From NCBI RefSeq assembly GCF_037902255.1, contig NZ_CP147990.1:4320001-4352000 (forward strand): a DNA stretch of 32,000 bases, given 5' to 3'. Source of the DNA: Candidatus Electrothrix sp. GW3-4 (lineage in GTDB: Bacteria; Desulfobacterota; Desulfobulbia; Desulfobulbales; Desulfobulbaceae). Numbering within the stretch: the stretch's first letter is position 1; each line of letters begins with the position of its first letter. The translations under genes and the position numbers were made by a program. Below, in pieces: positions 6,489 to 27,854 of this stretch. The notes beneath the pieces are model-generated. The model had not been told where the DNA came from. It made no database searches and was given only the letters and a program-made list of their open reading frames with translations.

Positions 6489-8447
6489 ATGACCACCTAT
6501 ATAACCACCCCCATCTATTACGTCAACGCCATGCCCCATATCGGGCATGCCTACACCACTATCGTTGCTGATACCTATGCCCGTTTTCGTCGCCTCTGCG
6601 GTGATGATGTTCGTTTTCAGACCGGCACAGATGAGCATGGTGAAAAGATTGTCCAGGCCGCTGAAAAGGAAGGCGTCACTCCGCGCGAGTATGTTGATCG
6701 CATTTCTGCTTCCTTTCGTGATACCTGGCCAGACCTGGATATCGCCCCGGATAATTTCATTCGCACCACAGATGAAGATCATATCAAGCTGGTACAGGAT
6801 ATCCTGCAAAAGGTCTATGATGAAGGGGATATCTATTTTTCCGAGTACTCAGGTCATTACTGCAAGGGTTGCGAGCGCTTTCTCACGGAAAAGGAGTTGG
6901 TGGACGGCAAATGCCCGGACCACCTCACCGTACCCGAGGAAATCAGTGAACAGAACTATTTTTTCCGTATGTCCAAGTACCAGGACTGGCTGATTGAGCA
7001 TGTTGAGAGTAATCCTGAATACATCACCCCGGAGCGCTACCGCAATGAGGTGCTCTCCTTTCTCTCTGAGCCACTGGAGGATCTCTGCATCTCCCGGCCC
7101 TGCTCCCGCCTGACCTGGGGGATTCCTCTGCCCTTTGATGAGAATTTTGTCACCTATGTCTGGTTTGATGCCCTGATCAACTACCTGACCGGGATCGGCT
7201 ACCCAGACGGCTCCTGTTTTGATTACTGGGCCGCTGCCGAGCATGTGATTGCCAAGGATATCCTCAAACCCCATGCTATTTACTGGCCAACTATGATTCG
7301 GGCAATGGGGCTGCCTCCGTATCGACGCTTGCATGTCCACGGTTACTGGAATGTGGATGAGACCAAGATGTCCAAGTCCCTGGGCAATGTGATTCGTCCT
7401 GGGGAGCTGGTGGAAGAATACGGGGTGGACACGGTACGCTATTTCCTCCTGCGGGAGATGAGTTTTGGTCGCGATTCTTCTTTTTCTACAGACGCTTTGG
7501 AATCCCGCCGCAACTCAGACCTGGCCAATGACGTGGGTAATCTCTTTTCCCGGGCCCTAACCATGCTGGCCAAGTATGCCGACGCTACCGTACCAGAGCT
7601 TGATAAGGCCACCGTGACCGAGGAGGATCGGATCCTGGTGGACGCGCTGGAAAAGATGGTGGCGGACTACACTGCCTTCATGAACGCCTTTGAGTTCCAC
7701 AAAGCCTTGCAGTCAATCTGGGAGGTGATCGGTATGCTCAACCGTTTCATTGTCACCAATGCCCCTTGGGAACTGGCCAAGGAGCCGGACCAGGCTGGCC
7801 GTCTGAACACGGTCCTCTATTTCCTGGCCGATAGTCTGCGTCTCCTTGCCCTGGTGCTCCGTCCGGTCATGCCCAGTGCAGCCAGCAAGATGGCGGCGGC
7901 CCTTGGCCTGGAAGAAAAACTGGCTACAGCGGTGCTGGCAGAAGAGGGCTGTTGGGGCGCGATGTCGGCAGGCACAGTGCTCAAGCAGGGTGAGGCCCTC
8001 TTTCCTCGTTTGGCAAAGAAGAAACAACAGCAGCCTCCGGCCCAAGAAAAAAAGCAGGGCAAGAAGGGCAAGGTTAAGAAGCAAGAGGCTGCCCCGGAAA
8101 TTGATATGGAAGGGCTGATCACCTTTGAGCAGTTCGGTGAGGTCGAGTTGCGGGTAGCGGAGATCGTCACAGCAGAGAAGATCAAAAAGGCCAAGAAACT
8201 GCTCAAGTTGACGGTTAAGGCCCCGGAGGAGCGGACTCTGGTGGCCGGTATTGCCCTGTTTTACAGCCCGGAAGAGCTGGTAGGGAAAAAGGTGATCATC
8301 GTAGCCAACCTGAAACCGGCTAAGCTGATGGGCATTACCTCCCAGGGTATGGTGCTGGCCGCCAAGGAGGTCGATGCGGACGGCAATGAGCGCTTAGTGC
8401 TCTCCACCGTGGCTGGCGATATTGCGCCGGGGGCGAGGGTGGCGTAG
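6489..8447 (+). CDS. metG: Methionine--tRNA ligase with C-terminal tRNA-binding (Trbp111/EMAP-like) domain
   Basis: Has the class I HIGH motif (PHIGHAYT), the KMSKS motif, and a CxxC...C zinc knuckle (CKGCERF...CPDH). A Lys-rich linker precedes the C-terminal OB-fold region VELRVAEIV...A...KLLKL. Confidence 0.95.
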   Translation: MTTYITTPIYYVNAMPHIGHAYTTIVADTYARFRRLCGDDVRFQTGTDEHGEKIVQAAEKEGVTPREYVDRISASFRDTWPDLDIAPDNFIRTTDEDHIKLVQDILQKVYDEGDIYFSEYSGHYCKGCERFLTEKELVDGKCPDHLTVPEEISEQNYFFRMSKYQDWLIEHVESNPEYITPERYRNEVLSFLSEPLEDLCISRPCSRLTWGIPLPFDENFVTYVWFDALINYLTGIGYPDGSCFDYWAAAEHVIAKDILKPHAIYWPTMIRAMGLPPYRRLHVHGYWNVDETKMSKSLGNVIRPGELVEEYGVDTVRYFLLREMSFGRDSSFSTDALESRRNSDLANDVGNLFSRALTMLAKYADATVPELDKATVTEEDRILVDALEKMVADYTAFMNAFEFHKALQSIWEVIGMLNRFIVTNAPWELAKEPDQAGRLNTVLYFLADSLRLLALVLRPVMPSAASKMAAALGLEEKLATAVLAEEGCWGAMSAGTVLKQGEALFPRLAKKKQQQPPAQEKKQGKKGKVKKQEAAPEIDMEGLITFEQFGEVELRVAEIVTAEKIKKAKKLLKLTVKAPEERTLVAGIALFYSPEELVGKKVIIVANLKPAKLMGITSQGMVLAAKEVDADGNERLVLSTVAGDIAPGARVA

Positions 8448-8512: not shown

Positions 8513-9628
8513 ATGATAACACAGCTTGAGATAAAGAACTTCAGAGGCTTCTCTGAGTACAAGATTGAGGATGTCGGGCAGGTTAATCTGCTGGTTGGGA
8601 CAAATAACTGTGGAAAAACTTCGGTTTTGGAAGCTGTTCATCTCCTGAGGTCAAGAGGAGATGCCTCTGTCTTGATTTCTCTCCTTTCTCATCGAGGGGA
8701 ATGGATTCCAAATGAAGAACGAATGCATCGTGATGCAGAAGGAGATTTATGCCGATTATTTCATGGATTCCGTTTGACAGCAAAATCAGCTTTGGTCATC
8801 AGTGCTGCTGATTATGCGATTGAAAGGTTATCGGCTTCTATTAATGAAATTCAAGTAGGTCAGCTCTCTCTGTTCAAAGATTTAGCTGACTCTGTAGGAC
8901 GATACCAACTTGACGTTGAATGGGGCTGGGATCAGGACAGACATAGTAAACAAGAATATCCCATTAGTTCTACAGGAGGCTTGTCTTATAATTATATGAG
9001 AAAGATGTCTCGTGCCAAATTAAGCATAGAAGAAGAAAACTATATAGAGTTCGTACCAGCCTCCTCGCTAGCTCCACAAGAAGTTGTTGCTTTGTTTGAC
9101 AAAATGGTTCTTACGCCGGATGAAGACTTGGTACTGGAAGCCGTAAGAATCATTGAACCGGATATTACTCGACTTGCCTCTCTTGGAGGTAGTGATCGAT
9201 ATTATCCTTTTCGATCTAGGGGCTATACTCGTAACGGCATTGTCGTCAAAAGCAGGAAGTGGGAGGAACGGATACCTATCGGCAGTTTCGGTGACGGCAT
9301 TTGGCGTCTGCTCGGCCTCATTCTCTCCCTTGTCGGCGCAAAAAACGGCACCCTCCTCATAGACGAAATTGATACCGGCCTGCACCACAGCGTGATGTCC
9401 AAGATGTGGAAGCTGATTTGCACCACCGCAAGAAAACTCAACGTGCAGGTCTTCGCCACCACCCACAGCAGCGATTGCTGGAAAATATTGGCTGACAATG
9501 CTGTTGAAGACGAAGTTGCAGATATGCCAATCCGCATTCACCGCATTGACAAGGATAAAAAGAAACCGGAAACCTTCACCAATCAGGAAATGCATCTCGC
9601 CTTGAACAGAGAAATTGAGGTGCGTTGA
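8513..9628 (+). CDS. ABC/SMC-type (AAA_15/AAA_21-like) ATPase, component A of a two-gene candidate defence cassette
   Basis: Walker A is GTNNCGKTS. There is a signature/Q-loop-like SFGDGIWRLLGL, a Walker B LLIDEIDTGLH and a His-switch ATTHS. The N-terminal LEIKNFRGF is typical of OLD/GajA/PtuA/AriA-type ATPases. Confidence 0.85.
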   Translation: MITQLEIKNFRGFSEYKIEDVGQVNLLVGTNNCGKTSVLEAVHLLRSRGDASVLISLLSHRGEWIPNEERMHRDAEGDLCRLFHGFRLTAKSALVISAADYAIERLSASINEIQVGQLSLFKDLADSVGRYQLDVEWGWDQDRHSKQEYPISSTGGLSYNYMRKMSRAKLSIEEENYIEFVPASSLAPQEVVALFDKMVLTPDEDLVLEAVRIIEPDITRLASLGGSDRYYPFRSRGYTRNGIVVKSRKWEERIPIGSFGDGIWRLLGLILSLVGAKNGTLLIDEIDTGLHHSVMSKMWKLICTTARKLNVQVFATTHSSDCWKILADNAVEDEVADMPIRIHRIDKDKKKPETFTNQEMHLALNREIEVR

Positions 9629-10269
9629 TGATTTATGAAAAAGTGCTGCTGGTTGAAGGCGAGGAAGACAAACGGGTCATTCCTGAGCTTGTCGAAGCCA
9701 ATGGCGTGCAATGGGGAGATAAACCAAAAGATCGTATTGTTGAAATTAAGCCGCTTCACGGAATAGAAAAACTCCTCGATAAAAACTTGATCAATATTGA
9801 GCTGAAGGCATCTGGTTTGAAAATACTTGGCATCATTCTTGATGCAGATGAATATCCCTCCAAACGCTGGCAAAGCATCCGCAACTGCCTGATTGAAAGA
9901 ATTCCTGACCTTCCAGAACATCTGCCGCAGTCTGGTCTGATTCATCCCGGAGAAATTAAAGTCGGCGTCTGGATGATGCCGGACAACAGAGAACGGGGAA
10001 TGCTTGAGACCTTTCTCCAATTCCTTCTGCCGGAGAACGGTAAGGAGTTATGGAGATTTTCTGAGCAAAGCTGCCTTCAGGCCAAAAAAGATCAGGGTGC
10101 TTGCTTTAAAGATTGTCACAGTGACAAAGCAAAGATTCATACGTGGTTAGCCTGGCAGAATCCACCGGGGAGACAGCTTCATAACGCCATAACTGAACGC
10201 ATTCTTTCGCCTGCTTCACCACAGGCCTCAGTATTTATGCAGTGGTTCACTGGCCTGTTTGAAGTATGA
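9628..10269 (+). CDS. Small Toprim-like protein (DUF3226/DUF4435/DUF4276-like), component B of the cassette
   Basis: The ATG at 9628 overlaps the TGA of the ATPase gene (tTGATG); the ORF track starts at the TTG at 9625. VLLVEGEEDKRVI (Glu10) and GIILDADE (Asp72/Asp74) match the Toprim E...DxD signature. 213 aa. Confidence 0.7.
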   Translation: MIYEKVLLVEGEEDKRVIPELVEANGVQWGDKPKDRIVEIKPLHGIEKLLDKNLINIELKASGLKILGIILDADEYPSKRWQSIRNCLIERIPDLPEHLPQSGLIHPGEIKVGVWMMPDNRERGMLETFLQFLLPENGKELWRFSEQSCLQAKKDQGACFKDCHSDKAKIHTWLAWQNPPGRQLHNAITERILSPASPQASVFMQWFTGLFEV

Positions 10270-12581: not shown

Positions 12582-13475
12582 TCAACGCAATGCAAAACGG
12601 ACAGGGACCTTCACCCACATGGATTGGGCTCTGCCTCCCACCGTCCCAGGAGAAAAGCGCCATCCTCGCACGGCCTTTAGGGCCGCCTTATCAAGAACGG
12701 CATGGCCGCTGCTGGCCAGGAGCTGCAATGCACTGACCCTGCCCTCTGCATCAACCCTGGCCTCAAGCATGACCACCCCTTCAAGCCCGCGCCTTCTCGC
12801 CATGCGGGGGTATTCCGGCGGTGGATTGGTCTTATAGAGGGGGGCTGCTTCCCGGACCACACCGGTGTTGGCTGGTGCTGTTCGGGGCATTGGCCTGATC
12901 GGGGTGGATGAGACCACCTGTCGTGTCCTGCTGACCGGAGGACGGCGAATGGGGTGGCTGCGCACCGGTTGCTGATGCGTTTGGCGAGAGGTTATTGTCC
13001 TGCGCAGAACGGGCTGCTGCCTGGGGCGTACCGACGTTTGAACACGGCTCGGTTCAGGCCTCTTCACCGGTTGCACAGCCAAGGGTTTGATCGTTTGCCG
13101 AATGACCGGGGCAAGCTTGGGGAGTGACGGAAGAGCAGTAGCAATCTTTTTTCCGGGTTTGAGCTGGAGCGGTCGGACCGCGTGGTGCTGTACCGGTGCG
13201 ATCTTGGGCAAGGCAGGCACCTTTTGCACAATCTTCTGCAGCGGTTCAGGCTTTGCTTTCGGCATTACGGGGCGGATCGGTTGATGCTCCTCCTGAACAA
13301 TCTCTTGCATCGGCGGCAGAGGAGGGGCAAGTCGCTTCAGGCTGACAGAGATCTTCTGGGGCAGGGGCTTGGGGCGCAGGGGCTGCGGCTGTTGCATCCG
13401 CCAGGAGAGCAGGGCCCCATGCAAGGTGATGGTGAGGAGGATTGCAGGGACCAGCCGCTGCCTTGCTTCGTTCAC
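12582..13475 (-). CDS. tonB: TonB family energy transducer
   Basis: N-terminal TM anchor, a long Pro-rich spacer, and a C-terminal TonB domain (PPEYPRMARRRGLEGVVMLEARVDAEGRV...AALKAVRGWRFSPG). The start overlaps the exbD stop by 4 nt. Confidence 0.88.
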   Translation of the reverse strand: MNEARQRLVPAILLTITLHGALLSWRMQQPQPLRPKPLPQKISVSLKRLAPPLPPMQEIVQEEHQPIRPVMPKAKPEPLQKIVQKVPALPKIAPVQHHAVRPLQLKPGKKIATALPSLPKLAPVIRQTIKPLAVQPVKRPEPSRVQTSVRPRQQPVLRRTITSRQTHQQPVRSHPIRRPPVSRTRQVVSSTPIRPMPRTAPANTGVVREAAPLYKTNPPPEYPRMARRRGLEGVVMLEARVDAEGRVSALQLLASSGHAVLDKAALKAVRGWRFSPGTVGGRAQSMWVKVPVRFALR

Positions 13476-13900
13476 TGCGTTACTCCCTCTGTCTCTGCTT
13501 GGAGAGAAATATTGGTCAGGCCAGCTAACCGAACCCGATCTAAGACTTGAAAAAGCTCCTGATAGGAAACCGATTTATCGGCAAAGATCTGGACATCAGG
13601 GCCCTTCTCCATATCTTCTTTCTTCTTTCCTGCAAGCATCTGCTCAAGCTGGGGGAGTTCCACCGGCTTTTCATCGACAAAGAGCTTCAGGATGCCGTTC
13701 TGATTCTGGATGGTGACACTGACCGCCTCTGCCGTCTCCAGGCCCGCCGTGCCGGATTCCGGCAGGTCCACCTGTTGACCCCGGTGCACGGCCATGGACA
13801 GCATGGCATAGATAAAAAAGACCAGCAGAAGAAAGACAATGTCGATCAGGGGCAACATTTCCACCCGGGGGGAGGTCATGGTCCGGTTCGTCAGTTTCAT
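13472..13900 (-). CDS. exbD: ExbD/TolR biopolymer transport protein
   Basis: 142 aa. Has the N-terminal motif MLPLIDIVFLLLVFFI followed by a periplasmic domain. Translationally coupled to both exbB and tonB. Confidence 0.88.
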   Translation of the reverse strand: MKLTNRTMTSPRVEMLPLIDIVFLLLVFFIYAMLSMAVHRGQQVDLPESGTAGLETAEAVSVTIQNQNGILKLFVDEKPVELPQLEQMLAGKKKEDMEKGPDVQIFADKSVSYQELFQVLDRVRLAGLTNISLQAETEGVTQ

Positions 13901-14511
13901 TTGCTCCCCTCCGCCTGCATCCTTCGGTAGCCTACCTCCAGTCGGGTGGCATATTTCTCCATGAGATGGGTCGCATTTTCAATCCGGCTCTTAAAATAAT
14001 TATAGGGAAAGACAGTGAAAATAGAGATGGTCAGGCCAGTAGCTGTGGTAATCAGGGCCTGGGCAATACCACCGGTCACCAGTTTGGGATCAGCCATGCC
14101 CGTGCTGCCGAGCATCTTAAAGGAAGAGATAATCCCGATCACCGTGCCAAGGATCCCCAGGAGTGGAGCCACCGTAATCATGGTGTCCAGCACGGTCATA
14201 AACTGGGACATCTTTTTCAGCAGATGCTGGGCCTCCGCTTCCATCGCCTTACTCATATCATAGTCCCGGTGCAGGATGCCGACCTTGAGCACCCGGACGA
14301 TGGCATCATTACTGTCTGCTGTTTTCTCTTCAATTTGTTGCCAATCCATGCTTTCGGCAACGGTGAGCACTTCATCGCGCAGGGCCCGGTTGCGCCGACG
14401 GACCATCCCTGTCCAGAACAGGCTGCGTTCCAGGATGATGGTCAGGACAATGAGCGAACAGGCGAGCAGCGGCCACATGACTAGGCCGCCGTTATGTATA
14501 ATTTCCAACAT
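13897..14511 (-). CDS. exbB: MotA/TolQ/ExbB proton-channel protein
   Basis: 204 aa with three TM segments. Conserved C-terminal region: APLLGILGTVIGII...GGIAQALITTATGL. Confidence 0.88.
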   Translation of the reverse strand: MLEIIHNGGLVMWPLLACSLIVLTIILERSLFWTGMVRRRNRALRDEVLTVAESMDWQQIEEKTADSNDAIVRVLKVGILHRDYDMSKAMEAEAQHLLKKMSQFMTVLDTMITVAPLLGILGTVIGIISSFKMLGSTGMADPKLVTGGIAQALITTATGLTISIFTVFPYNYFKSRIENATHLMEKYATRLEVGYRRMQAEGSK

Positions 14512-14739
14512 AGTAACCTTTCATTATGCGTTGTTAGGGCGATGAAAAAATGACAGCAGGCATTCGGACTGACGACAACGAATCGTTAAGAGGAAACCGG
14601 TCGTTGTCATTTCCAGACAACCTAAACCATATTGGGCTTCCTGGACAATGGGGCGGAAGACTCATTTTTCCGGGAGGATTTCCCGGGCTCCGGGCAAGCT
14701 GCTGTCTCCAAAAAGGCTTTGAGATAAAGAGCAGCCTTG

Positions 14740-15600
14740 TTACCTCTTCAGGGGATTACGAAATTCCGGGTGGATCAGGCCAGCCATAATGGAGAGTGTT
14801 TCCGCAAAGGTAACTGGCGAGGGACTGCAGGCCAGGTCTGGGCTGACCACATGGACCTGCTGGTTTTGCACAGCGCTGAGCATGGGAAAGCCCTCCCATT
14901 TCTTTTTTTCCTCCTGGGCAATCCCGGTCTCACTGCCCATCATGGCAATGATGATGACCTCAGGATTCTTCACCAGCACCTTTTCATAGCTGACGGTGCC
15001 CCTCTTCTGTTCACCGATGACGTTGATTCCATTGCTCAGGGCGATAAAATCATGGGTAAAGGAGTTCTGCGCTGCCCCGAAAAGGGGGCGGGAGCCGATC
15101 TGGAGAAAGACCTTCTTCTGAGGAAGCGGAGCAACAGCGGTCCGTACTGCTGCCACCTTTTTCTCTGCTTCCCGAATGACCTCCTCAGCCCGCTCCTCCA
15201 GGCCGAGCAGCTGGCCGAGCCGGAGAAACTGCGCACAGATCTCGGCAAAGGAGGCAGATTGTGGAAACAGCTCCACCCGCAGGCCGAGTTCCTGAAACTT
15301 TTTGAGTTGGATGGGGGAGGTCAGGCCGGTGGCCAGGATCAGGTCCGGGCGCAGGCTGAGGATCTTTTCAATGGAGACCTGCATCACCGAACCGACCTTT
15401 TCTTTGGCCTTGGCAGCCTCTGGTCGGACGCAGTAGTTGGTATTGCCGACCAGGCGACCCTCCGCCCCAAGGAGGTAGACATTTTCCGTGTTGATAGGCC
15501 CCAGGGAGACGATGCGCTGGGGGAAATTGTTTGCCTCGGCCTGTTCAGGCACCGGCGCAAGGCAGAGCAGCAGGCTGAGAAAAAGAAGGTATCTGGTCAT
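14740..15600 (-). CDS. Periplasmic substrate-binding protein of the cobalamin/siderophore (BtuF-like, type III PBP) class
   Basis: ORF 14740..15708. I prefer the ATG at 15600, which gives a signal peptide MTRYLLFLSLLLCLAPVPEQAEA. RIVSLGPINTENVYLLGAEGRLVG is typical of the family. A cobalamin riboswitch lies directly upstream. Confidence 0.8.
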   Translation of the reverse strand: MTRYLLFLSLLLCLAPVPEQAEANNFPQRIVSLGPINTENVYLLGAEGRLVGNTNYCVRPEAAKAKEKVGSVMQVSIEKILSLRPDLILATGLTSPIQLKKFQELGLRVELFPQSASFAEICAQFLRLGQLLGLEERAEEVIREAEKKVAAVRTAVAPLPQKKVFLQIGSRPLFGAAQNSFTHDFIALSNGINVIGEQKRGTVSYEKVLVKNPEVIIIAMMGSETGIAQEEKKKWEGFPMLSAVQNQQVHVVSPDLACSPSPVTFAETLSIMAGLIHPEFRNPLKR

Positions 15601-15640
15601 GATTTTTATAAAAAGACGAGAAAGTTTACTGGCAGGCAGG

Positions 15641-15682
15641 CAAAAAAAATCCCCGAATCTGTATACGTATACAGATCCGGGG
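15641..15682 (-). terminator. Intrinsic terminator of the riboswitch expression platform
   Basis: The minus strand reads CCCCGGATCTGTATAC/GTATACAGATTCGGGG, a roughly 16-bp stem with one G-U pair. It is followed by A and then T8. It lies between the aptamer and the btuF-like start codon. Confidence 0.8.
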
Positions 15683-15791
15683 ATGCCCTGTTTAATCCAC
15701 GAATACACATCAGCCGAGCCTTCTTTACCATGAAGGCGGACTTTGCTCAGCAGCGCTGCGTCTCCGGTAGGCTTGAACTGACAGCGTTATT

Positions 15792-15948
15792 TTCAGACAG
15801 GTCTTCTGACTCCCGGATCATCCTTTGGTTGCGCCTTCCCGCATGAATCATGCAGTGGCATTGTGCAGCCTTTGTCCCCGGTTACAGCGGCGGGCCCGTC
15901 CCGGATTCGCACCGGGTTCCCTATTAAGCTCAGTGAGGAGCATCTGAA
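15792..15948 (-). promoter_or_regulatory. Cobalamin (B12) riboswitch aptamer
   Basis: The minus strand reads TTCAGA...AATAGGGAACCCGGTGCGAATCCGGGACGGGCCCGCCGCTGTAACCGGGGACAA...GCCACTG...GGGAAGGCG...GAGTCAGAAGACCTGTCTGAA. This contains the conserved GGGAA/GGTG-AATCC/CCCGC-CTGTAA core, GCCACTG, and the B12 box. The P1 stem is TTCAGA/TCTGAA. Confidence 0.9.
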
Positions 15949-16324
15949 GTATGGCAGGTAGATTACCTGAAACATAATACTACTGTCAAGAAGATGCGAA
16001 TAAATCTGTCCGGGTTCTGGAATGTATGCTCACCTGTTGATCCTGAGCATGCTGGGACATGTTACGAATGCGAGGTTTCCTGTGAAAGGGAAGCAGAAGG
16101 GTGGAAGGTGCGGGACAAGTCGGATTGTGGACAATCCCTCTTCGCAACTACCCCATAACGGCTGCGCGGTTTGAGTTTGGGGGTGTGATGCCGGGATGGG
16201 TACTTTTTTCCATTGTAACAGTGAATTTATCCTTGCTTTGTGAGTGGTTTTATGTTTATCGTCAGAATTATTGACGATTCCTGGGATATACTGAGAAACC
16301 TAGTACAGCGCGGCGCAAATAACC

Positions 16325-17080
16325 CTATGCTTTTAACGGCAACCCATTAAATGTCCATTTGTATGGTTTTGCCATTGTCGCATTAAAGTAATCAATAAAG
16401 TCGAGCAATTTGCTCCTGAGATCTTTTTTTGATGTAAAATTACCTCTTTTAATGATTTTCTTAGTAAGAATACCAAACCAAATTTCTACTTGATTGAGCC
16501 ATGAACAGTGTTTTGGGGTATAAACAAAGCGAATTGCATGGTCTTTCTTCCTGAGAAATTCGGCTCTGCTTTTCATTGATTTCAAAATGCCTTGTTTCCC
16601 TTTGACGCCTAAATTATCTTTTATTTCGCATAATTCACTGACCAACTTGACAAGTGATTCCGACTTATGAGTATTGAGCTGATCAGCCACAAAGACCCAC
16701 TCCCGAGTTTCCGGATCGCTTAATATAAGGCTTCGAATATGTTCGCAAAAATCATGTTCGTCCCGAGTGTCTCCTATGCTGGGAGAGACGACTTCACCGG
16801 TCACTACGTCAAAGTTTGCAATGAGCGAGAGTGTTCCGTGCCTGATGTACTCAAACTCAATCCGCTCCGGCTTTCCCGGCTCTATCTTTTTTGTCGGATT
16901 TTTCCTCTCAAGAGCCTGTATTCCGGTATTTTCATCAATACTGATGGTTCGCCTGCCGTTTATTACCGCCTTTCGGGGAGCTTCGTGGTATGTTTCACAG
17001 ACATCTTTCACTTCTAAAACAAACAGTTCTTCATTGTCATGATTGGGATTGAGCCAATACCGACTATGATGAGGTTTCAC
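16325..17080 (-). CDS. IS630-family transposase, DDE catalytic part (orfB)
   Basis: 251 aa. Contains ISIDENTGIQA (first D), VFVADQLNTHKS (second D) and HCSWLNQVEIWFGIL (E region), as in DDE_3/IS630-Tc1 transposases. This frame is open from the A-run and overlaps orfA. Confidence 0.8.
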   Translation of the reverse strand: MKPHHSRYWLNPNHDNEELFVLEVKDVCETYHEAPRKAVINGRRTISIDENTGIQALERKNPTKKIEPGKPERIEFEYIRHGTLSLIANFDVVTGEVVSPSIGDTRDEHDFCEHIRSLILSDPETREWVFVADQLNTHKSESLVKLVSELCEIKDNLGVKGKQGILKSMKSRAEFLRKKDHAIRFVYTPKHCSWLNQVEIWFGILTKKIIKRGNFTSKKDLRSKLLDFIDYFNATMAKPYKWTFNGLPLKA

Positions 17081-17621
17081 ATCGGTTTCTTTTTAAAAAT
17101 CGGCCCACTTGACGGTCCGAAATTCCAGAGGTTATCCCACGCTTATTGCATTCATCCGCCAATTCCCTACTGCTCCATTGAGAAATTGGACGACCGCTTT
17201 CTTCGGGATGCTCCAGTGCAACTGCTAAAATCTGACAATATTGTTCTGAAGAATAAGTTACTGGTGCTCCCGGACGCGGATTATCTTTTAAAACTTCTCG
17301 AATACTTTTTTCCAACTGATTGGCATTTTGGGGATCAGTCTCTATTTGCATTAAAGTATCTTGGTTGGCCAGCCACTTGTATCTCCAATGTTTAACCTTG
17401 TCGATACTGCAACTCATGACTTTTGCAATCTTTGAGTTCGGTTTTCCTTTCTCAATCTCCAATATTAAAGAAGCCCGACTTACCTCACGAAAATCAGCTG
17501 TTGATTGTCGAGCTATTTTTGACAAAATTTCTTTCTGTTGTTCGGAAACAGCAATTGATGGCGATTTGGGTGTAGGCATTTTCGAATCCATGTGTTGCAA
17601 GATTGTTGTCAATATACGCAA
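17064..17621 (-). CDS. IS630-family transposase, N-terminal HTH part (orfA)
   Basis: 185 aa with helix-turn-helix-like segments (SKIAKVMSCSIDKVKHWRYKW; RELADECNKRGITSGISDRQVGRFLK). The ORF ends inside the tta-aaa-aga A-run region. Confidence 0.8.
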   Translation of the reverse strand: MRILTTILQHMDSKMPTPKSPSIAVSEQQKEILSKIARQSTADFREVSRASLILEIEKGKPNSKIAKVMSCSIDKVKHWRYKWLANQDTLMQIETDPQNANQLEKSIREVLKDNPRPGAPVTYSSEQYCQILAVALEHPEESGRPISQWSSRELADECNKRGITSGISDRQVGRFLKRNRCETSS

Positions 17622-18049: not shown

Positions 18050-20187
<2,138 letters not shown>

Positions 20188-20195
<8 letters not shown>

Positions 20196-20535
20196 AAAAT
20201 CAGACAGCAAGCGTGCGCAAGAGGAGACAGTGTTTAGTCGGGAAGTTGGCACAAAGGCGGCACGCAAGCTCAAGGCGCAGCGTAACGCCACGCCGGGTGT
20301 CTGGTTTGGCCTGGGCATGATGGGACTGGTCGGCTGGTCGGTGGCGGTGCCGACGCTGCTCGGTGCAGCGCTTGGTCTCTGGTTGGATAACCAGCATCCG
20401 GGCCAGTATTCCTGGACACTGGCACTGTTAATGGCCGGACTTGTGATCGGCTGTTTCAATGCCTGGATTTGGATTGCCAAAGAAGACCGGGCCATGCGAG
20501 AGGAACAGGAGGATAAGGAGGATAATGATGACTGA
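20188..20535 (+). CDS. atpQ: N-ATPase accessory membrane protein AtpQ (ATPase_gene1 / AtpZ-AtpI-like)
   Basis: 115 aa with two TM segments (VWFGLGMMGLVGWSVAVPTLLGAALGLWLD; WTLALLMAGLVIGCFNAWIW). The ATG overlaps the atpC stop. Sits at the third position of the N-ATPase operon. Confidence 0.8.
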
Positions 20536-20890
20536 AACGTTAACCTTGATGCTGACATTGATGCCAGTCTGGGTGACCGGAGGAATGATCGGAGTAATGT
20601 TTTTCGGCGGACTCTGGTGGACAGTGCAAAAGGCGCTTTCATCCACACGACCGGCACTGTGGTTTTTCAGCAGCTGGCTGCTGCGGATGAGCCTTGCCCT
20701 GACCGGATTTCACCTTGTTGCGGGCGGCCATTGGCAACGGCTACTGATCTGTCTTCTGGGCTTTGTCATGGCACGCCCGGTCGTGACACGGCTGACCCAA
20801 TACAGCGTCCCTCCGAAACCCTGTATGGCGAGTCTCGGAGAGACTCGCGTACCTGATGCGGAGACACAGGAGGTCAAGGATGCGCCTTAG
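20525..20890 (+). CDS. atpR: N-ATPase accessory membrane protein AtpR
   Basis: ORF 20459..20890. I prefer the ATG at 20525 (MMTETLTLML...), which overlaps the atpQ stop. Hydrophobic protein with a membrane-embedded Arg (SWLLRMSLALTGF). Sits at the fourth position of the operon. Confidence 0.75.
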   Translation: MMTETLTLMLTLMPVWVTGGMIGVMFFGGLWWTVQKALSSTRPALWFFSSWLLRMSLALTGFHLVAGGHWQRLLICLLGFVMARPVVTRLTQYSVPPKPCMASLGETRVPDAETQEVKDAP

Positions 20891-21581
20891 CCCCGATGAA
20901 ATCATCTTCTGGCAACTGGGTTTTTTCAAACTCAACGCCACCATTGTCTTTACCTGGGGACTGATGCTCGTGCTGGCCGTCGGCGCCAGACTCATCACGC
21001 GCAAACTGTCCACCGATCTGGAACGTTCCCGCTGGCAGAACCTGCTGGAAATCGTGGTGACCGGCATTGAGCAACAAATCAAAGAGGTGGGCCTGACGCA
21101 GCCTCGGCAATATCTCGGCTTTTTGGGCACGCTTTTCCTGTTTGTCGCCGCAGCCAGCCTTGGCACCGTCATTCCGGGCTTTGAGCCGCCCACCGGTTCG
21201 CTCTCGACCACGACGGCACTTGCGCTGTGTGTGTTTGTGGCTGTGCCGCTGTTCGGCATTGCCGAGCAGGGGGTGAGCGGTTTCCTCTCATCCTATGTGC
21301 AGCCGACGTTCATCATGCTGCCCTTTAACATCATCAGCGAAATTTCACGGACACTGGCCCTGGCCGTCCGTTTGTTCGGCAACATGATGAGCGGGGCCAT
21401 GATTATCGCTATTCTGCTGACCATCACGCCGTTCCTCTTTCCCATTGTCATGACGCTGCTCGGCCTGCTCACCGGCATGGTGCAGGCCTACATTTTTAGC
21501 ATCCTGGCCGCAGTCTATATCGCGGCCGCCGCCCAAGTCCATAAGTCCAAACTTCAACCGCAGCAAACCGTTGCAGCATGA
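20880..21581 (+). CDS. atpB: N-type ATPase subunit a
   Basis: ORF 20856..21581. I prefer the ATG at 20880 (AGGAGG at 20868-20873). Contains the conserved stator Arg region LALAVRLFGNMMSG. Confidence 0.9.
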   Translation: MRLSPDEIIFWQLGFFKLNATIVFTWGLMLVLAVGARLITRKLSTDLERSRWQNLLEIVVTGIEQQIKEVGLTQPRQYLGFLGTLFLFVAAASLGTVIPGFEPPTGSLSTTTALALCVFVAVPLFGIAEQGVSGFLSSYVQPTFIMLPFNIISEISRTLALAVRLFGNMMSGAMIIAILLTITPFLFPIVMTLLGLLTGMVQAYIFSILAAVYIAAAAQVHKSKLQPQQTVAA

Positions 21582-21605
21582 ACGACAACAAACAAAGGAG
21601 ATACC

Positions 21606-21890
21606 ATGTACAGCAGCATGACTATTATCGCGGTGGCATCCATTGTCATCGCTGGCATTACCACCGGTTTCGGCTGTTTGGGGCCAGCACTAGCCGAAGG
21701 CAGGGCGGTCGCGACAGCCCTGAGTTCGCTGGCCCAGCAGCCCGATGCCTCCGCCACGATCACTCGGACCCTGTTTGTCGGTCTGGCAATGATCGAATCC
21801 ACGGCCATTTACTGCTTTGTGGTCTCGATGATTCTGATCTTCGCCAATCCGTTCTGGAATTACGTTATCGCCCAAGCTGCGGGACAGTAG
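21606..21890 (+). CDS. atpE: N-type ATPase c subunit (proteolipid) with a full Na+-type ligand set
   Basis: 94-aa helical hairpin with loop motif AQQPD. Helix 2 carries IESTAIY (E64, S65, T66, Y69). Helix 1 has E31 at the position of Q32 in the Ilyobacter tartaricus c subunit. Confidence 0.92.
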   Translation: MYSSMTIIAVASIVIAGITTGFGCLGPALAEGRAVATALSSLAQQPDASATITRTLFVGLAMIESTAIYCFVVSMILIFANPFWNYVIAQAAGQ

Positions 21891-21894
21891 ACCT

Positions 21895-22677
21895 ATGTTA
21901 ATCGATTGGTTCACCGTCGGTGCGCAGGCACTCAACTTTCTCATCCTGGTGTGGTTGATGCAGCGATTTCTGTACAAGCCCATTCTGCACGCCATTGACG
22001 CGCGGGAAGAGCGGATCGCCACGGAACTTGCGAACGCCGACGCGAAAAAGGCCGAGGCCCGACAGGAGCGCGACGAGTTCCGGGACAAGAATGAGGAAAT
22101 GGACCGACAGCGTGCCTCGCTGTTGAGCAAAGCAACAGAAGAGGCGCAGGCCGAACGAGAACGGCTCCTCGACGAAGCACGGCAGGCTGCGGCGGCCTTG
22201 CGTTTAACACAGCAGGAAGCCTTGAGAAACGAACAACAGAACCTGCACCAGGCACTCATCCGCCGGACACAGCAGGAAGTTTTTGCCATCGCACGTCAGA
22301 CGCTGACCGATCTCGCCGGGACGAGTTTGGAAGAACGTCTGGGCGAGGTGTTCACGCGCCGCTTACGCGAAATGGACGACCAGGCGAAAGCAGATCTCGC
22401 CGAGGCCCTGGAGACAACAGGGAAGCCCGCGCTCGTGCGCAGCGCAGGTGATCTGCCTGTCGAGCAGCGCGCAGCGATACAAAAGGCGCTCAACGAAACC
22501 TTCTCGGCCGACATCCACCTTCGCTTCCAGACCACGCCGGACCTGATCAGCGGTATTGAACTCACCGCAAATGGACAAAAGGTGGCCTGGAGCATTGCGG
22601 ATTATCTGGCATCGCTGGAAAAAGGTGTCGATGAACTTCTGAAAAAAAAGATAAACTATAAAGAGGGTCTAACATGA
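21895..22677 (+). CDS. atpF: N-type ATPase subunit b (long form with delta/OSCP-like C-terminal part)
   Basis: 260 aa. N-terminal TM segment, a long charged helix ([27 protein letters not shown]...), and a C-terminal [20 protein letters not shown] resembling the delta C-terminus. No separate atpH gene is present, as expected for N-ATPases. Confidence 0.88.
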
Positions 22678-22853
22678 AAGAAGGCACAATGGATTTTTGG
22701 CGTATCATCCTGTCTGTCATCATTCCGCCGGTAGGGGTCTTTTTACAGGTCGGTTTCGGTCTCCATTTCTGGATCAATATCCTCCTGACCTTATTGGGCT
22801 ATATTCCGGGGCTGATTCATGCGATCTGGATTATTACAAGAAAAACAAACTGA
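22674..22853 (+). CDS. Pmp3/YqaE (UPF0057) family small hydrophobic protein, not in the ORF track
   Basis: My own translation: [59 protein letters not shown] (59 aa). It closely matches E. coli YqaE as I recall it (...ILPPLGV...[18 protein letters not shown]). The ATG overlaps the atpF TGA (ATGA). Its stop lies 2 nt before the atpA ATG. Confidence 0.88.
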
Positions 22854-22855
22854 GG

Positions 22856-24436
22856 ATGAAGGAACCGATAAGTAGGGAAGCTGAGGGCCTCAAGAACGTT
22901 TTCGACAGCGCGTTTGCCGGAATAAGCCAGGTGCGGAAATCGTTCAAGCCGCAACTTATGCCCCGTGAGGTGGGCACAATCACCGGTATCGCCACCGGCA
23001 TCGCCAAGGTCTCCGGGCTGCCCGGCGTGGGCTTTGAGGAACTTGTGCAATTTCAAGGTGATGTACTCGGTATCGCGTTCAACGTGGATGCAGACGAAAT
23101 CGGCGTTGTCCTGCTCGGCGAATACTGGCGCCTCCACACGGGAGATGAAGTCCAACGCACGGGCCGGGTCATGGACGTGGCCGTGGGCGAAGGATTGCTG
23201 GGGCGCGTCATTGACCCGCTTGGTCGGCCGCTTGATGGCAATGGGCCGATGGCCGCAAGCGAGCGTCTGCCCATTGAACGCCCTGCCCCGCCCATCATGG
23301 ACCGCGCGCCCGTCACCGTGCCGCTCCAATCCGGTCTCAAAGTCATTGATGCGCTCATTCCCATCGGGCGCGGCCAACGCGAGTTGATCCTGGGTGACCG
23401 GCAGACGGGCAAGACCACCATTGCCATCGACACCATCCTCAACCAGCGCGACCATAATGTGCTGTGCGTGTATTGTGCCATCGGCCAGCGTGCGTCCGCT
23501 GTAGCCAAGGCCGTGGCCACCCTGCGGGAAAAGGGAGCCATGGAGTACACCGTCCTCGTCGTGACCGAGGGCAACGACCCGCCGGGCCTTACCTACATCG
23601 CGCCTTACGCTGCAACCAGTATTGCGGAGCATTTCATGGAAGCGGGTCGAGACGTGCTGATCGTGTACGACGATCTCACCCATCACGCCCGCGCCTACCG
23701 CGAACTCTCGCTCCTGCTGCGCCGTCCGCCCGGTCGCGAAGCCTTCCCCGGCGACATCTTTTATATCCACTCGCGGCTGCTGGAACGCGCCACACACCTG
23801 CGCGAGGAACTCGGTGGCGGCTCCCTCACCGCCCTGCCCATCATCGAGACCGAGGCGCAAAACATTTCCGCCTACATTCCGACCAACCTGATTTCCATCA
23901 CGGACGGGCAGATCTACCTCTCGCCGTCCCTGTTTGAATTGGGCGTGCTGCCGGCAGTCGATGTGGGCAAATCCGTTTCGCGCGTCGGCGGCAAGGCGCA
24001 ACGGGCGGCCTTCCGCGCGGTGGCGGGCGACCTCAAGCTCGCTTACGCGCAGTTCGAGGAACTTGAGACCTTTGCCCGCTTTGGTGCCCGCCTAGATCAA
24101 GATACCCGCAAGATTATCGAGCACGGACGGCAAATCCGCGCCTGCCTCAAACAGCCGGAATTTGCCCCGGTGGCCGTGCCCGCACAAATCGCCGTCCTGC
24201 TGGCCTTAACTGTGGAGCTGTTCGATGAGGTGGCGTTGGACCGGATGACGGACGCCGAGCAGGCCGTGCGCCAGGCAGCAGCGGAGATCCCATCGGAGGT
24301 GTGCAAGCGGTTGGAGACCGCCGAACAGTTGAGCGACGAAGATCGTGCAACGATCATTGCAATCGCCCGCAAATCACTGGAAGGGTTCCAGCCTGAGACG
24401 GAATCCGAAGCCCAACCAGAAGTAACTTTATCTTGA
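22856..24436 (+). CDS. atpA: N-type ATPase alpha subunit
   Basis: ORF 22697..24436. The first 53 codons of that ORF overlap the Pmp3 gene in another frame, so I prefer the ATG at 22856 ([16 protein letters not shown]...). The P-loop is GDRQTGKT. Confidence 0.92.
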
Positions 24437-24527
24437 AGATGGCAGAAAAGTTTTCTGAACTTTCAAAAGAGAACAGAAGGGGGAATAAACCATGTTGTTG
24501 AACACAATCAAAGTAGGAGGATACATC

Positions 24528-24890
24528 ATGATTTTGAATGAATTGGCAAATAAAGTGAAAAAATCCAGGATTTCGCGAGCAAAGGATATGCGACGAAACA
24601 GAACTAAAAATATCGCCATAGGGGTCGGCATCGGCTCCGTACTGGGGGTTGCGGCCGGAATCCTGTTCGCCCCTAAATCGGGCAAAGAAACCCGGCAAAT
24701 CATTGCCGATAAAACCAGCGAAACCGTGAAGGATTTTAAAAATAACGTGTCCGCAACCAAAGAAAAAATATCCGTTTCGGCTGCGGAAAAGGGCTCTCGT
24801 TTGCGCGAAGCCGGTCAGGAAGGCGTTGCGGTCGTAAAAGAATCTTTGAGAAAATTAGGTGAAGACAAGAAGAATGAATCCAATACATAA
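24528..24890 (+). CDS. YtxH domain-containing membrane-anchored protein
   Basis: ORF 24492..24890. I prefer the ATG at 24528 (AGGAGG at 24515-24520). Carries the hallmark GIGSVLGVAAGILFAPKSGKETRQII followed by a charged helical tail. Confidence 0.82.
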   Translation: MILNELANKVKKSRISRAKDMRRNRTKNIAIGVGIGSVLGVAAGILFAPKSGKETRQIIADKTSETVKDFKNNVSATKEKISVSAAEKGSRLREAGQEGVAVVKESLRKLGEDKKNESNT

Positions 24891-25052
24891 AGTTTGACAG
24901 CCAGTACCCCACCTTTTGAATAATCGACACTTTCAGCACTGTATCAGTACGGTAAGAATGCCGAAAAATGGGCTTGCAGGTCAACTTCGAGTGTCGATTA
25001 TATTTGGTTAGCTGCTTAATTACTTTTTAAAATGCAAAAAAAGGATGGCCTT

Positions 25053-25445
25053 ATGCAAGGATCAATTACGTTGAATGAATTGGGCATATTCATCATTTTT
25101 GCTTTAATTGTCGTGGCCGGTGGATACGCCATCGTGACGCTGAAAAACATTAATGCTTTGATTAAAGTGGCTTCAGCCACGCTGCAAAAAAACCAAGGCC
25201 ATTTAAATCAAATCATTCCCAATATTAATGAGATTTCAGAAAATACCGCAAAAATCAGCGAAGAGATCAAAAAAAGCGTTGATGAGGCGGGTGAGGCCGT
25301 CAGAACCATTTCTCATGAAACCGCCGATACAGTCTTGACGATCAATGAGACCGCTGATTATCTGGCAAAATATGCCCTGGTGATCGGCGAAATTGCCAAG
25401 ACGATTGTCAATATGTTTTCATCGAATGAGAAAGCTATGAAATAA
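25053..25445 (+). CDS. DUF948-like membrane-anchored coiled-coil protein
   Basis: ORF 25032..25445; the start is at 25032 or 25053. An N-terminal TM segment (LGIFIIFALIVVAGGYAIV) is followed by LKNINALIKVASATLQKNQGHLNQIIPNINEISENTAKISEEI. This architecture matches DUF948 proteins, which I recall pairing with YtxH genes in Firmicutes. Confidence 0.7.
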   Translation: MQGSITLNELGIFIIFALIVVAGGYAIVTLKNINALIKVASATLQKNQGHLNQIIPNINEISENTAKISEEIKKSVDEAGEAVRTISHETADTVLTINETADYLAKYALVIGEIAKTIVNMFSSNEKAMK

Positions 25446-25484
25446 CGCATAAGGCGCTGATACGCCTGAACACGAGGAAACGTC

Positions 25485-26384
25485 ATGAGCGAGACTACGG
25501 CGAGTCTGCGCCGAAAGATCAGTAGTGCTGGAGATCTCCAATCCGTCGTGCGCACGATGAAGTCCTTGGCCGCTTCGAGCATCGGACAATACGAGAAATC
25601 GTTGAGCGCGTTGGCCGACTACAATCGCACGGTGGAGCTGGGATTGAGTGTCTGTTTCCGTGGTGCCAGTTCGGCGGCATTTATGGTAACCGGAGAGACA
25701 CAACAAACGGATACGGGTGAGCTGAGCGCGGTCGTGTTCGGGTCCGACCAGGGATTGGTGGGCCAATTTAATGACGTGGTGGCCGATTACGCCATGAAGA
25801 CCCTCGCAACGCTGCCCGGCAGACCTCAGGTATGGGCTGTCGGCGAACGTGTTCATGCACGCTTGACGGACGCAGGCCTGCCTTCGGTCGGCCTCTTCGG
25901 GGTGCCGAATTCCGTCAAGGCCATCACCCCGCTCATCGACCGAATACTGGTGGAAAGCGAGGCAGGTCGCAGCTCGAACGAGGGTGTTGCACCGCTTTAC
26001 CTTTTCTACAACCGCCCAGGATCAGGCCCGGTTTATGCGCCGGTCAGTCAACGACTGCTGCCTTTGGATGAAAACTGGCGGCTCAAGCTCGCCGAGCTTC
26101 CCTGGCCGACGGGAAACTTGCCCGAAATCATGGGTGACAGCGGCACGACTCTGCGTGCACTCATCCGCGAATATCTTTTCGTTTCGCTCTTCCGGGCCTG
26201 CGCCGAATCCCTTGCAAGCGAGAACGCGAGCCGTCTGGCCGCCATGCAGCGTGCTGACAAAAATATCGACGAATTGCTGGAAGACCTCAATAGAACGTTC
26301 CATAGTTTGCGCCAGAGCGGCATCGACGAGGAATTGTTCGACGTCATCTCGGGCTTTGAATCGCTGAGTGTCGAGGAGCAATGA
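25485..26384 (+). CDS. atpG: N-type ATPase gamma subunit
   Basis: 299 aa. The N-terminal LRRKISSAGDLQSVVRTMKSLAASS and C-terminal ENASRLAAMQRADKNIDELLEDL...IDEELFDVISG helices are typical of gamma. Last gene of the atpDCQRBEFAG order. Confidence 0.9.
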   Translation: MSETTASLRRKISSAGDLQSVVRTMKSLAASSIGQYEKSLSALADYNRTVELGLSVCFRGASSAAFMVTGETQQTDTGELSAVVFGSDQGLVGQFNDVVADYAMKTLATLPGRPQVWAVGERVHARLTDAGLPSVGLFGVPNSVKAITPLIDRILVESEAGRSSNEGVAPLYLFYNRPGSGPVYAPVSQRLLPLDENWRLKLAELPWPTGNLPEIMGDSGTTLRALIREYLFVSLFRACAESLASENASRLAAMQRADKNIDELLEDLNRTFHSLRQSGIDEELFDVISGFESLSVEEQ

Positions 26385-26480: not shown

Positions 26481-27224
26481 ATGTTACGCAGTGTAAAAGA
26501 AATTCACAATTATGTTCTACAGGCAGAAGATGGGGAGATCGGCCGTTGCAAAGATTTATTATTTGATGACCGTTTTTGGGCCGTTCGGTACATGGTGGCG
26601 GACACAGGCAAATGGTTGCCGGGACGAGAAGTACTTTTATCCCCCATTTCACTTGGCGAACCCAACTGGAGTTCCAGATTTTTTCCAGTCCGGTTAACGA
26701 AAAAACAGATAGAAAAAGCACCGGGACTTGATGAGGACGCACCGGTCAGCAGACAGCATGAAATCCTTTGGACCCAATATTACGGCTGGCCTTATTACTG
26801 GGGCGGCCCTTATGCATGGGGAGCCGCAGCTTACCCGGGAGCGTTGTATGATGAAAAATTACCGGAAAATAAGACAACTGAAGTGGATTCAGGAGATGAT
26901 CATCTCCGTTCTGTTCATGAAGTAACGGGTTACCACATTCAAGCGACAGATGATGAGGTTGGCCATATGGAAGACTTTATCGTAGATGATGAGACTTGGA
27001 TTATCCGGTATCTGGTAGTGGACACCCGCAATTGGTTGCCGGGGAAGAAGGTGCTGGTGCCGCCGACCTGGATAGGTTCGGTAGACTGGGCGGATAATAA
27101 GGTGAGTGTTGCTCTGACCAGAGAGCAGGTCAAGGACAGCCCGGAATATGATCCTTCGACTGTGGTGAACCGTGAGTATGAAGTACGGTTATACGATTTC
27201 TACGGTCGTCCGAAGTACTGGTAA
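26481..27224 (+). CDS. Tandem PRC-barrel domain protein
   Basis: Two internal copies of the PRC-barrel pattern. Copy 1: IHNYVLQAEDGEIGRCKDLLFDDRFWAVRYMVADTGKWLPGREVLLSP. Copy 2: VTGYHIQATDDEVGHMEDFIVDDETWIIRYLVVDTRNWLPGKKVLVPP. Confidence 0.8.
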   Translation: MLRSVKEIHNYVLQAEDGEIGRCKDLLFDDRFWAVRYMVADTGKWLPGREVLLSPISLGEPNWSSRFFPVRLTKKQIEKAPGLDEDAPVSRQHEILWTQYYGWPYYWGGPYAWGAAAYPGALYDEKLPENKTTEVDSGDDHLRSVHEVTGYHIQATDDEVGHMEDFIVDDETWIIRYLVVDTRNWLPGKKVLVPPTWIGSVDWADNKVSVALTREQVKDSPEYDPSTVVNREYEVRLYDFYGRPKYW

Positions 27225-27801: not shown

Positions 27802-27854
27802 AAAAACATTAGAATCCGACAAATCACTTGCCAAAGAAAAGGGATAAAAGTGTC

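Follow-up and report, generated by a model that had tools for sequence, protein, structure and literature searches.

What is the role of two small, overlapping genes that stand by themselves between housekeeping genes in the genome of a cable bacterium? The question is raised by a 32,000 nucleotide (nt) stretch of Candidatus Electrothrix sp. GW3-4 (contig NZ_CP147990.1, positions 4,320,001 to 4,352,000), referred to here in its whole length as the window. An earlier note on this DNA drew attention to an ATPase gene (gene A) followed directly by a gene for a Toprim-like protein (gene B), and proposed that the two form a split-OLD or PARIS-like defence module that could not be placed in any named system. 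PADLOC does place the pair, in PDC-M38, and by all of the sequence criteria applied it is a member of that family. The PDC systems are phage defence candidates derived by 'guilt-by-embedding', with 145 listed without assay (Payne et al., 2024; bioRxiv 10.1101/2024.01.29.577857); they are predicted to be defensive because copies are embedded in BREX, DISARM or type I restriction-modification (RM) loci. PDC-M38 was assigned from two-gene cassettes (supplementary table 8; bioRxiv 10.1101/2024.01.29.577857). We consider it probable, on balance, that the cassette is a split-OLD anti-phage module of this family.

The gene pair and its junction

Gene A (8513-9628) and gene B (9628-10269) lie on the + strand, as do all of the features of the pair described below, and encode proteins of 371 and 213 amino acids, the latter counted from its ATG, ahead of which there is an in-frame TTG at 9625. 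PADLOC, Pfam and relatives in the PDB identify gene A as an OLD-type ATP-binding cassette (ABC) ATPase of the PDC-M38A type, while Pfam and PADLOC identify gene B as a DUF3226 or PDC-M38B protein and a predicted OLD-type Toprim nuclease. These coordinates and sizes agree with those of the earlier note, as does the position of the pair, with a metG-like gene upstream (recognised by tblastn to metG of other genomes and by Pfam at the Ca. Electronema halotolerans locus, L001) and an alpha-amylase family (GH13) gene downstream. The four motifs quoted for gene A (GTNNCGKTS, SFGDGIWRLL, LLIDEIDTGLH and ATTHS) are all present in its translation. Both A and B are real genes, as is evident from the 1147 close homologues of B, the 2162 B representatives that remain after clustering at 50% identity and the conserved pairing of the two.

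The two open reading frames are separated by a stop codon, so that the ATPase and the Toprim-like protein are not one polypeptide. At the junction (9617-9630; GAGGTGCGTTGATG) the TGA of gene A (9626-9628) and the ATG of gene B (9628-9630) share one base, and a Shine-Dalgarno-like GAGG (9617-9620) lies 8 nt 5' of the ATG. The one-nucleotide TGATG overlap that had been reported is thus real, and the coupling is kept throughout the family: in 73/73 distinct homologous pairs the gap between the stop of A and the start of B falls between -1 and +9 nt. All 73 homologues of gene A end in the same three residues, E-V-R. Since the codons of this tripeptide (GAGGTGCGT) include the GAGG of gene B, the stretch that encodes it (9617-9628) may be under a dual constraint, both coding and regulatory. 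No promoter or terminator consensus was found on the + strand around the cassette, including the gap between metG and gene A.

Gene A, the ATPase

Gene A matches the Pfam families AAA_15 (1.8e-23) and AAA_21 (9.4e-18), which bears out the proposal that it encodes an ATPase of the OLD/SMC type. In PADLOC the PDC-M38A model PDLC04611 matches at 1.4e-81 and spans the whole protein (residues 1-371 on 1-383 of 383), and four more M38A models match. The AbiLi model PDLC02336 also matches along the entire protein (7.7e-56, residues 1-371 on 1-340 of 340), and AriA models match at 2.9e-24 on residues 1-48 and 228-320 only. The GajA and PtuA models match only the two ATPase lobes. In NCBIfam nothing scored above cutoffs for the pair and no housekeeping model passed. 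The closest solved relatives of the gene A profile are the OLD protein of Thermus scotoductus (6p74, 1.3e-8), the Septu and retron PtuA proteins and RecF; AriA and GajA were not among the PDB relatives at E<=0.01. Similarity to RecF and Rad50 is weak and confined to the N-terminal P-loop segment.

Alignment of 73 distinct homologues showed the ATPase motifs (GxNNxGKTS, SxGxG, LLIDE, the D-loop and TTHS) to be essentially invariant at the level of the family. The Walker A or P-loop motif GTNNCGKTS occupies residues 29-37 (8597-8623) and contains K35; G29, N31, N32, G34, K35, T36 and S37 are invariant (alignment A6). The ABC signature-like SFGDG (S258-G262; 9284-9298), part of SFGDGIWRLL (258-267), has invariant G260 and G262, with S258 and D261 conserved in at least 90%. 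The Walker B motif LLIDE (281-285) runs directly into the D-loop IDTGLH (286-291; 9353-9385 for both), and in these L282, D284, E285, D287, G289, L290 and H291 are invariant. The H-loop ATTHS (315-319; 9455-9469) has invariant A315, T316, T317 and H318. Unlike the N- and C-terminal ATPase lobes, the region between residues ~65 and 240 (8705-9232) is poorly conserved. This variable insert is a candidate sensor or oligomerisation region.

Across the family the identities of A and of B correlate (r = 0.79), with B the better conserved partner in 92% of comparisons; A evolves faster than B, mainly in the central insert. The correlation, taken with the greater conservation of B, agrees with a variable sensor whose partner effector is under constraint.

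Gene B, the Toprim-like protein

Gene B matches DUF3226 in Pfam along its full length (8.3e-70) and the PDC-M38B models of PADLOC (PDLC04624, 7.9e-68, residues 2-212 on 11-219 of 220; PDLC04623, 1.4e-32). DUF3226 had been suggested for this protein together with DUF4435 and DUF4276. The first of these was the correct choice; DUF4435 and DUF4276, like RloB, gave no Pfam match at E<=0.1 in any of 65 B homologues. These 65 diverse proteins, with identities to gene B down to 32%, also form the alignment on which the residue counts below are based. Apart from DUF3226, the sole family to recur among them was OLD-like_TOPRIM, which matched 21 of the 65 at E<=0.1. Three homologues exceed its curated cutoff, P0007 (26.1 bits), P0026 (25.9 bits) and P0190 (24.5 bits); P0007 is 80% identical to the B of the window and P0190 covers the entire OLD-like_TOPRIM model.

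A Toprim domain is marked by a glutamate after the first strand and a DxD motif after the third (PMC12065111; PMC6755086). The corresponding signature in gene B had been read from the sequence as E10, within VLLVEGEEDKRVI (residues 6-18), followed about 60 residues later by ILDADE (70-75), and this reading stands, with D72 placed 62 residues past E10. E10-G-E-E-D14 (9655-9669) provides the Toprim glutamate and an acidic residue at +4, and the DxD motif D72-A-D74 (9841-9849) lies at the end of the third strand. E10, D72, G113, W115, M117, P118, G124 and E127 are invariant in 65/65 homologues and position 13 or 14 is acidic in all of them; position 45, past the strand at 39-42, where the Toprim glycine after β2 would fall, is glycine in 48 and serine in 15. 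The second aspartate, D74, is retained in 58 and replaced by N in 7. The seven members with asparagine keep E10, D72 and E127 and may constitute a catalytic variant or an inactivated subgroup. Conservation of E10, D72 and D74, on which the earlier note had made its reading of gene B depend, is therefore complete for two of the residues and high for the third.

AlphaFold2 models of B place these residues where a Toprim fold would require them. The predicted Toprim-like core (residues 5-133; 9640-10026), which is delimited by the model, by hhalign and by the Pfam match of P0190, has the order β1-α1-β2-α2-β3-α3-β4-α4, with strands at 5-9, 39-42, 66-72 and 111-117 and α4 at 125-133. E10 follows directly on β1 and the DxD stands at the end of β3, in agreement with the published hallmarks. 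For residues 1-120 the full-length model had block means of 83-94 in the predicted local distance difference test, and a domain-only model averaged 82.5. When the DUF3226 profile was aligned with P2 Old by hhalign, residues 3-76 fell on Old 391-457 with LLVEG opposite LLVEG and DAD opposite DCD in register (E 7e-4). The probability of this alignment was just 26% because the template was a single sequence; a search for homologues of the P2 Old Toprim region had returned 5 near-identical fragments only, and tblastn of this region against plasmids gave no match. An equivalent alignment of the DUF3226 profile with an RloB protein found no relation.

The two-metal active site of the OLD protein BpOLD (6NK8) consists of E400, E404, D455, D457, T506/E508 and K562 (PMC6755086). 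E10, D14, D72, D74, E127 and K167 of gene B match this set in order and with similar spacing, a correspondence of linear order and not of superposed structures. E127 (in GMLETF; 10006-10008), which by its invariance and its place in the linear order is the predicted metal-B ligand, stands at the start of the helix past β4, 55 residues past D72, while BpOLD E508 is 53 residues past D455. K167 (10126-10128) is K in 64 of the 65 homologues and is tentatively proposed as the counterpart of K562; the model has low confidence at this residue.

Taken together, gene B is best read as the catalytic region of an OLD nuclease in the form of a stand-alone protein, with a Toprim core, then a helical part and a predicted two-metal site. 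We regard its predicted assignment as an OLD-type Toprim protein as very likely, and there is little doubt over the domain identities of A and B as a pair. The label 'split OLD' thus appears apt in view of the P2 Old alignment, the OLD-like_TOPRIM matches, the BpOLD-like residues and the Thermus OLD relative of gene A.

Distribution and genomic setting

The pairing of A and B is obligate. In 83/85 loci B is immediately preceded on its own strand by an A homologue; the remaining two loci are truncated at contig ends. Nearly all of the best 150 B representatives are stand-alone proteins of ~210-230 amino acids. The pair is patchily distributed across phyla, with at least 587 matches among 185,579 species genomes, and is also found on small mobilisable plasmids. 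The nearest relatives of B (72-92% identity) are in the cable bacteria Ca. Electronema and Ca. Electrothrix; beyond these come many cyanobacteria (~55%) and then Planctomycetota, Spirochaetota and others. More distant B homologues (26-34% identity) are carried by small plasmids, each adjoining an ATPase gene where the annotation was checked. A 6.4 kb MOBQ ColE-type plasmid of Citrobacter has no cargo other than the pair, and a plasmid of Acinetobacter carries it beside BrnTA.

The position of the pair varies. The order metG-A-B is common only to the window and Ca. Electronema halotolerans (L001), and in other loci the pair is preceded by valS, topA or unrelated genes, so that its position differs even within the cable bacteria. 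In five cable bacterial loci (L001, L004, L086, L088 and the window) it was observed directly past metG, valS or topA on the same strand, with gaps of ~55-75 nt, and rsfS-gpmI lies downstream of it in three cable bacterial genomes.

The pair differs from its surroundings in base composition. The G+C content is 0.451 in gene A and 0.458 in gene B, as against 0.548 in metG and 0.540 in the GH13 gene, which puts the pair ~9 points under its neighbours; the counts on which the AT-richness had been noted, 23/60 at 8701-8760 versus 35/60 at 7801-7860, were reproduced exactly. Low GC and isolation had been offered as a sign of insertion, and this does not hold. Since the pair has a lower G+C content than its flanks in every host, at 80/80 loci (mean difference ~6 points), low GC is a property of the PDC-M38 family and is silent on recent insertion in the window. 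As evidence of recent transfer it was dropped for the same reason.

As had been remarked, there is no integrase near the cassette in the window, and direct or inverted repeats flanking it do not rise above chance; the window is also free of tRNA genes. The nearest mobile element is an IS630-type transposase ~6 kb downstream of the cassette (16325-17621, - strand), which consists of two overlapping open reading frames (HTH_32, then DDE_3) with a G+C content of 0.41-0.44 and is the sole mobile-element gene of the window.

Enrichment of homologous pairs near defence genes, which had been put forward as a check on the defensive reading, was approached by a PADLOC scan of 257 flanking open reading frames from 35 loci, carried out with no formal enrichment statistic. 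Most of the matches were to generic kinases and ABC transporters. Genes of the Uma2 or PD-(D/E)xK kind and of type I or IIG RM systems were few, TIR, BrxC/D-like, RM and RloB-pair neighbours occurred sporadically, and clustering of the neighbourhoods revealed little conserved synteny. In the cable bacterial clade the association with defence islands is thus weak. Embedding-derived candidates have been remarked to show less association with other defence systems (Payne et al., 2024; bioRxiv 10.1101/2024.01.29.577857), and the present result agrees with this.

Further modules, one of them putative, occur in two neighbourhoods. In Ca. Electronema sp. JM a second split pair, an AAA_21 ATPase with RloB (L086:12712-14618), lies 2 kb downstream of the PDC-M38 pair, and this locus thus holds two different ATPase and Toprim-like modules. 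In Ca. Electronema halotolerans a CbiA/ParA-like ATPase gene and then a weak HEPN_RiboL-PSP match (L001:5243-6880) stand directly upstream of metG; these may form another small conflict module, one that is absent from the window.

A proposed mechanism and its alternatives

Besides the domain evidence, the anti-phage reading is favoured by the embedded loci from which PDC-M38 was derived, by the accessory behaviour of the pair (changing genomic contexts, carriage on plasmids, low GC) and by the proven defensive role of the related PARIS and AbiL. If the cassette is a split-OLD anti-phage module, A and B would be made in fixed proportion through translational coupling and would form a complex. 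The ATPase would sense an infection-associated cue, presumably through its variable insert, and control the nuclease. Once licensed, B would cut nucleic acid and so halt the replication of the phage; the cell would probably be sacrificed in the process (abortive infection). DNA is favoured as the substrate by the OLD-like residues of B, among them the K562-like lysine, and would be nicked or degraded by analogy with OLD and GajA, in which cleavage of DNA by an attached nuclease is regulated by ATP (PMC12065111; PMC6755086). Cleavage of tRNA or another RNA, in the manner of AriB and RNase M5, is possible. In PARIS, which assembles as AriA6-AriB3, the ATPase sequesters the nuclease until a phage anti-restriction protein frees it and tRNA-Lys is cleaved; that the present pair works by such sequestration and release is conceivable on this analogy and on the whole doubtful.

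Several observations weigh against a defensive module of this kind. Between the window and Ca. Electronema halotolerans B is 90% identical, more than metG (82%) and far more than A (62%), which is unusual for a gene in an arms race. The pair of the cable bacterial clade is mostly solo among housekeeping genes with few defence neighbours, and no homologue was found in phages. The literature searched held no mention of PDC-M38 or DUF3226 and no experimental test of either was found, and HEC-01, which also combines an ATPase with a Toprim protein, gave no protection when assayed (Payne et al., 2024; bioRxiv 10.1101/2024.01.29.577857). As to the nuclease, the window's own B meets OLD-like_TOPRIM over residues 4-26 (E 0.0074) with 17.2 bits, below the curated cutoff of 23.2.

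Other explanations were also considered. Pairs of an ATPase and a DUF3226 protein might constitute a separate OLD-like class in which 213 residues hold the whole OLD catalytic core and which works differently from PARIS; the effector might, for example, nick or degrade DNA under the gating of ATP and remain attached to its ATPase, in contrast to a released tRNase. This we think unlikely, if still worth entertaining. In filamentous cable bacteria and cyanobacteria, the stable solo residence of the pair by housekeeping genes could point to a role beyond classical phage defence.

Also unlikely is an addiction module of the toxin-antitoxin (TA) kind, in which B would be a toxic nuclease, A its ATP-dependent neutraliser and the benefit the module's own persistence on plasmids and chromosomes. 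Such a module would explain why the pair can be the only cargo of a mobilisable ColE-type plasmid or the neighbour of BrnTA, why A and B are so tightly coupled and why the pair is found solo among housekeeping genes, and there is a precedent in PARIS, which behaves as a type II TA system. The same precedent shows that addiction and defence are compatible, PARIS being both; moreover, the family is found embedded in RM, BREX or DISARM loci, and the variable, sensor-like insert of A suggests recognition of changing external cues.

A housekeeping role in nucleic acid metabolism, either as a RecF/SbcCD-like repair ATPase with its nuclease or in RNase M5-like RNA maturation, with expression shared with metG, valS or topA, seems improbable. 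It would account for the short same-strand gaps behind these genes in cable bacteria, the missing promoter and terminator consensus between metG and A, the conservation of B beyond that of metG and the weak resemblance of the A N-terminus to RecF and Rad50. A housekeeping gene would, however, hardly be so patchily scattered over phyla, change position even within the cable bacteria, travel on small plasmids or be GC-poorer than its flanks in every locus compared; and the RecF and Rad50 matches extend to the P-loop segment only, with no NCBIfam housekeeping model above cutoff.

There is a similarly small chance that B is not an active nuclease and is instead a non-catalytic or ligand-binding alpha/beta module that resembles Toprim and acts by another mechanism. 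Foldseek returned no significant Toprim match for the B models of good confidence, as would be expected in that case; the same holds for the failure of sequence and profile searches of the PDB with B to find a relative and for the asparagine in 7 of 65 members. On the other hand, E10, D72 and E127 are invariant and D14, D74 and K167 nearly so down to 32% identity, a pattern that one would hardly expect unless these residues served catalysis or metal binding; the curated OLD-like_TOPRIM cutoff is passed by homologues, and the P2 Old alignment is in register. Asparagine, furthermore, would still be able to hold a metal-bound water, and BpOLD D457 itself works via waters (PMC6755086). That the pair is a divergent PARIS or AbiL proper is highly improbable and largely refuted by the model searches: the two-gene architecture is the same, the AriA and AbiLi models match A and B homologues are labelled 'DUF4435' in some databases, but the partner models of both systems fail on B at E<=1, DUF4435, DUF4276 and RloB fail in 65 members of its family at E<=0.1, hhalign to an RloB protein found nothing, the AriA match is limited to the ATPase lobes with AriA missing from the PDB relatives at E<=0.01, and the proteins are much smaller than AriA and AriB.

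The split-OLD reading thus remains the one we prefer. Few bacterial immune designs are as widespread, or as little understood, as the OLD-type ATPase-Toprim modules, with mechanisms known only for PARIS, Gabija and a few OLD proteins, and the DUF3226 family, for all its 2162 clusters, has been catalogued only as a candidate and is absent from the literature searched. The analysis provides a proposed catalytic model (E10, D14, D72, D74, E127 and K167 in B; K35, E285 and H318 in A). Strict conservation of both pairing and junction also makes the cassette, which is compact at 1.76 kb, ready for cloning.

Other features of the window

Downstream of the pair, a cobalamin riboswitch (RF00174, 119.9 bits; 15779-15962, - strand) lies upstream of a minus-strand open reading frame at 14740-15708. 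ExbB/ExbD/TonB-like genes are also found downstream of the riboswitch (region 12582-15708, - strand), with TonB_C confirmed by Pfam, and together these probably form a B12-regulated uptake operon. An overlapping + strand open reading frame (14737-15846) has no Pfam match and is probably spurious.

An ATP synthase operon occupies 18053-26384 (+ strand) in the order beta, epsilon, ..., a, ..., b, alpha, gamma, a gene order which we take to resemble that of N-type ATPase operons. Two small low-GC open reading frames, YtxH-like (24492-24890) and DUF948 (25032-25445), are located between alpha and gamma. Further along, a PRC-barrel protein gene (26481-27224) precedes the gene of a large response regulator-PAS-GGDEF-EAL protein of cyclic di-GMP turnover (27828-29951, + strand), where the G+C content drops to 0.44-0.49.

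Comparison with known systems

The closest known system is PDC-M38 itself. Both proteins match its hidden Markov models along their full length and A lies directly upstream of B; the difference is one of setting, in that the copies used to define the family sit inside BREX, DISARM or type I RM loci (Payne et al., 2024) and the pair of the window is solo. With the OLD nucleases (P2 Old of class 1, the Thermus OLD 6p74 and BpOLD 6NK8) the pair shares an ATPase relative, the Toprim alignment and the two-metal residue set with its lysine. It differs in that an OLD protein combines ATPase and Toprim in a single chain of ~530-590 amino acids where here there are two proteins, and in that the region of B past E127 is short (~85 amino acids) and without detectable similarity to the OLD helical domain.

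PARIS is likewise a two-gene operon, in which one gene encodes an AAA_15/21 ABC ATPase and the other a separate Toprim effector, and it offers a plausible model of how the ATPase could release or activate the nuclease. Its effector, however, belongs to DUF4435 while B is DUF3226, and gene A lacks most of the AriA inserts. AriA and AriB are proteins of 55 and 35 kDa, so the remark that B, at 213 amino acids, is shorter than AriB was correct. The suggested PARIS-like membership was not upheld: AriB models gave no match to B at E<=1 in PADLOC, neither AriB nor DUF4435 was matched by B or its 65 relatives, and the AriA match is partial. Lactococcal AbiL resembles the pair in its two-gene layout of an ATPase and a predicted Toprim/OLD protein, and gene A matches one AbiLi model full length, although lactococcal AbiLi is larger (~453 amino acids). 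AbiL membership was rejected in spite of this AbiLi match, as AbiLii models gave no match to B at E<=1 in PADLOC. Both PARIS and AbiL are proven defences and related systems of ATPase and Toprim. HEC-01, RloAB, the Mad3-Mad4 proteins of MADS (DUF4276) and the Menshen effectors similarly join an OLD-type ABC ATPase to a small Toprim-fold effector, but their effectors belong to other families (RloB, DUF4276).

An ABC ATPase with a separate Toprim effector is therefore an architecture already known from PARIS, AbiL, RloAB, HEC-01 and Mad3-Mad4, and PDC-M38 has already been catalogued. Because the family is catalogued and the architecture known, the pair does not represent a new kind of system, and the locus is appropriately annotated as a PDC-M38 candidate defence module, distinct from PARIS.

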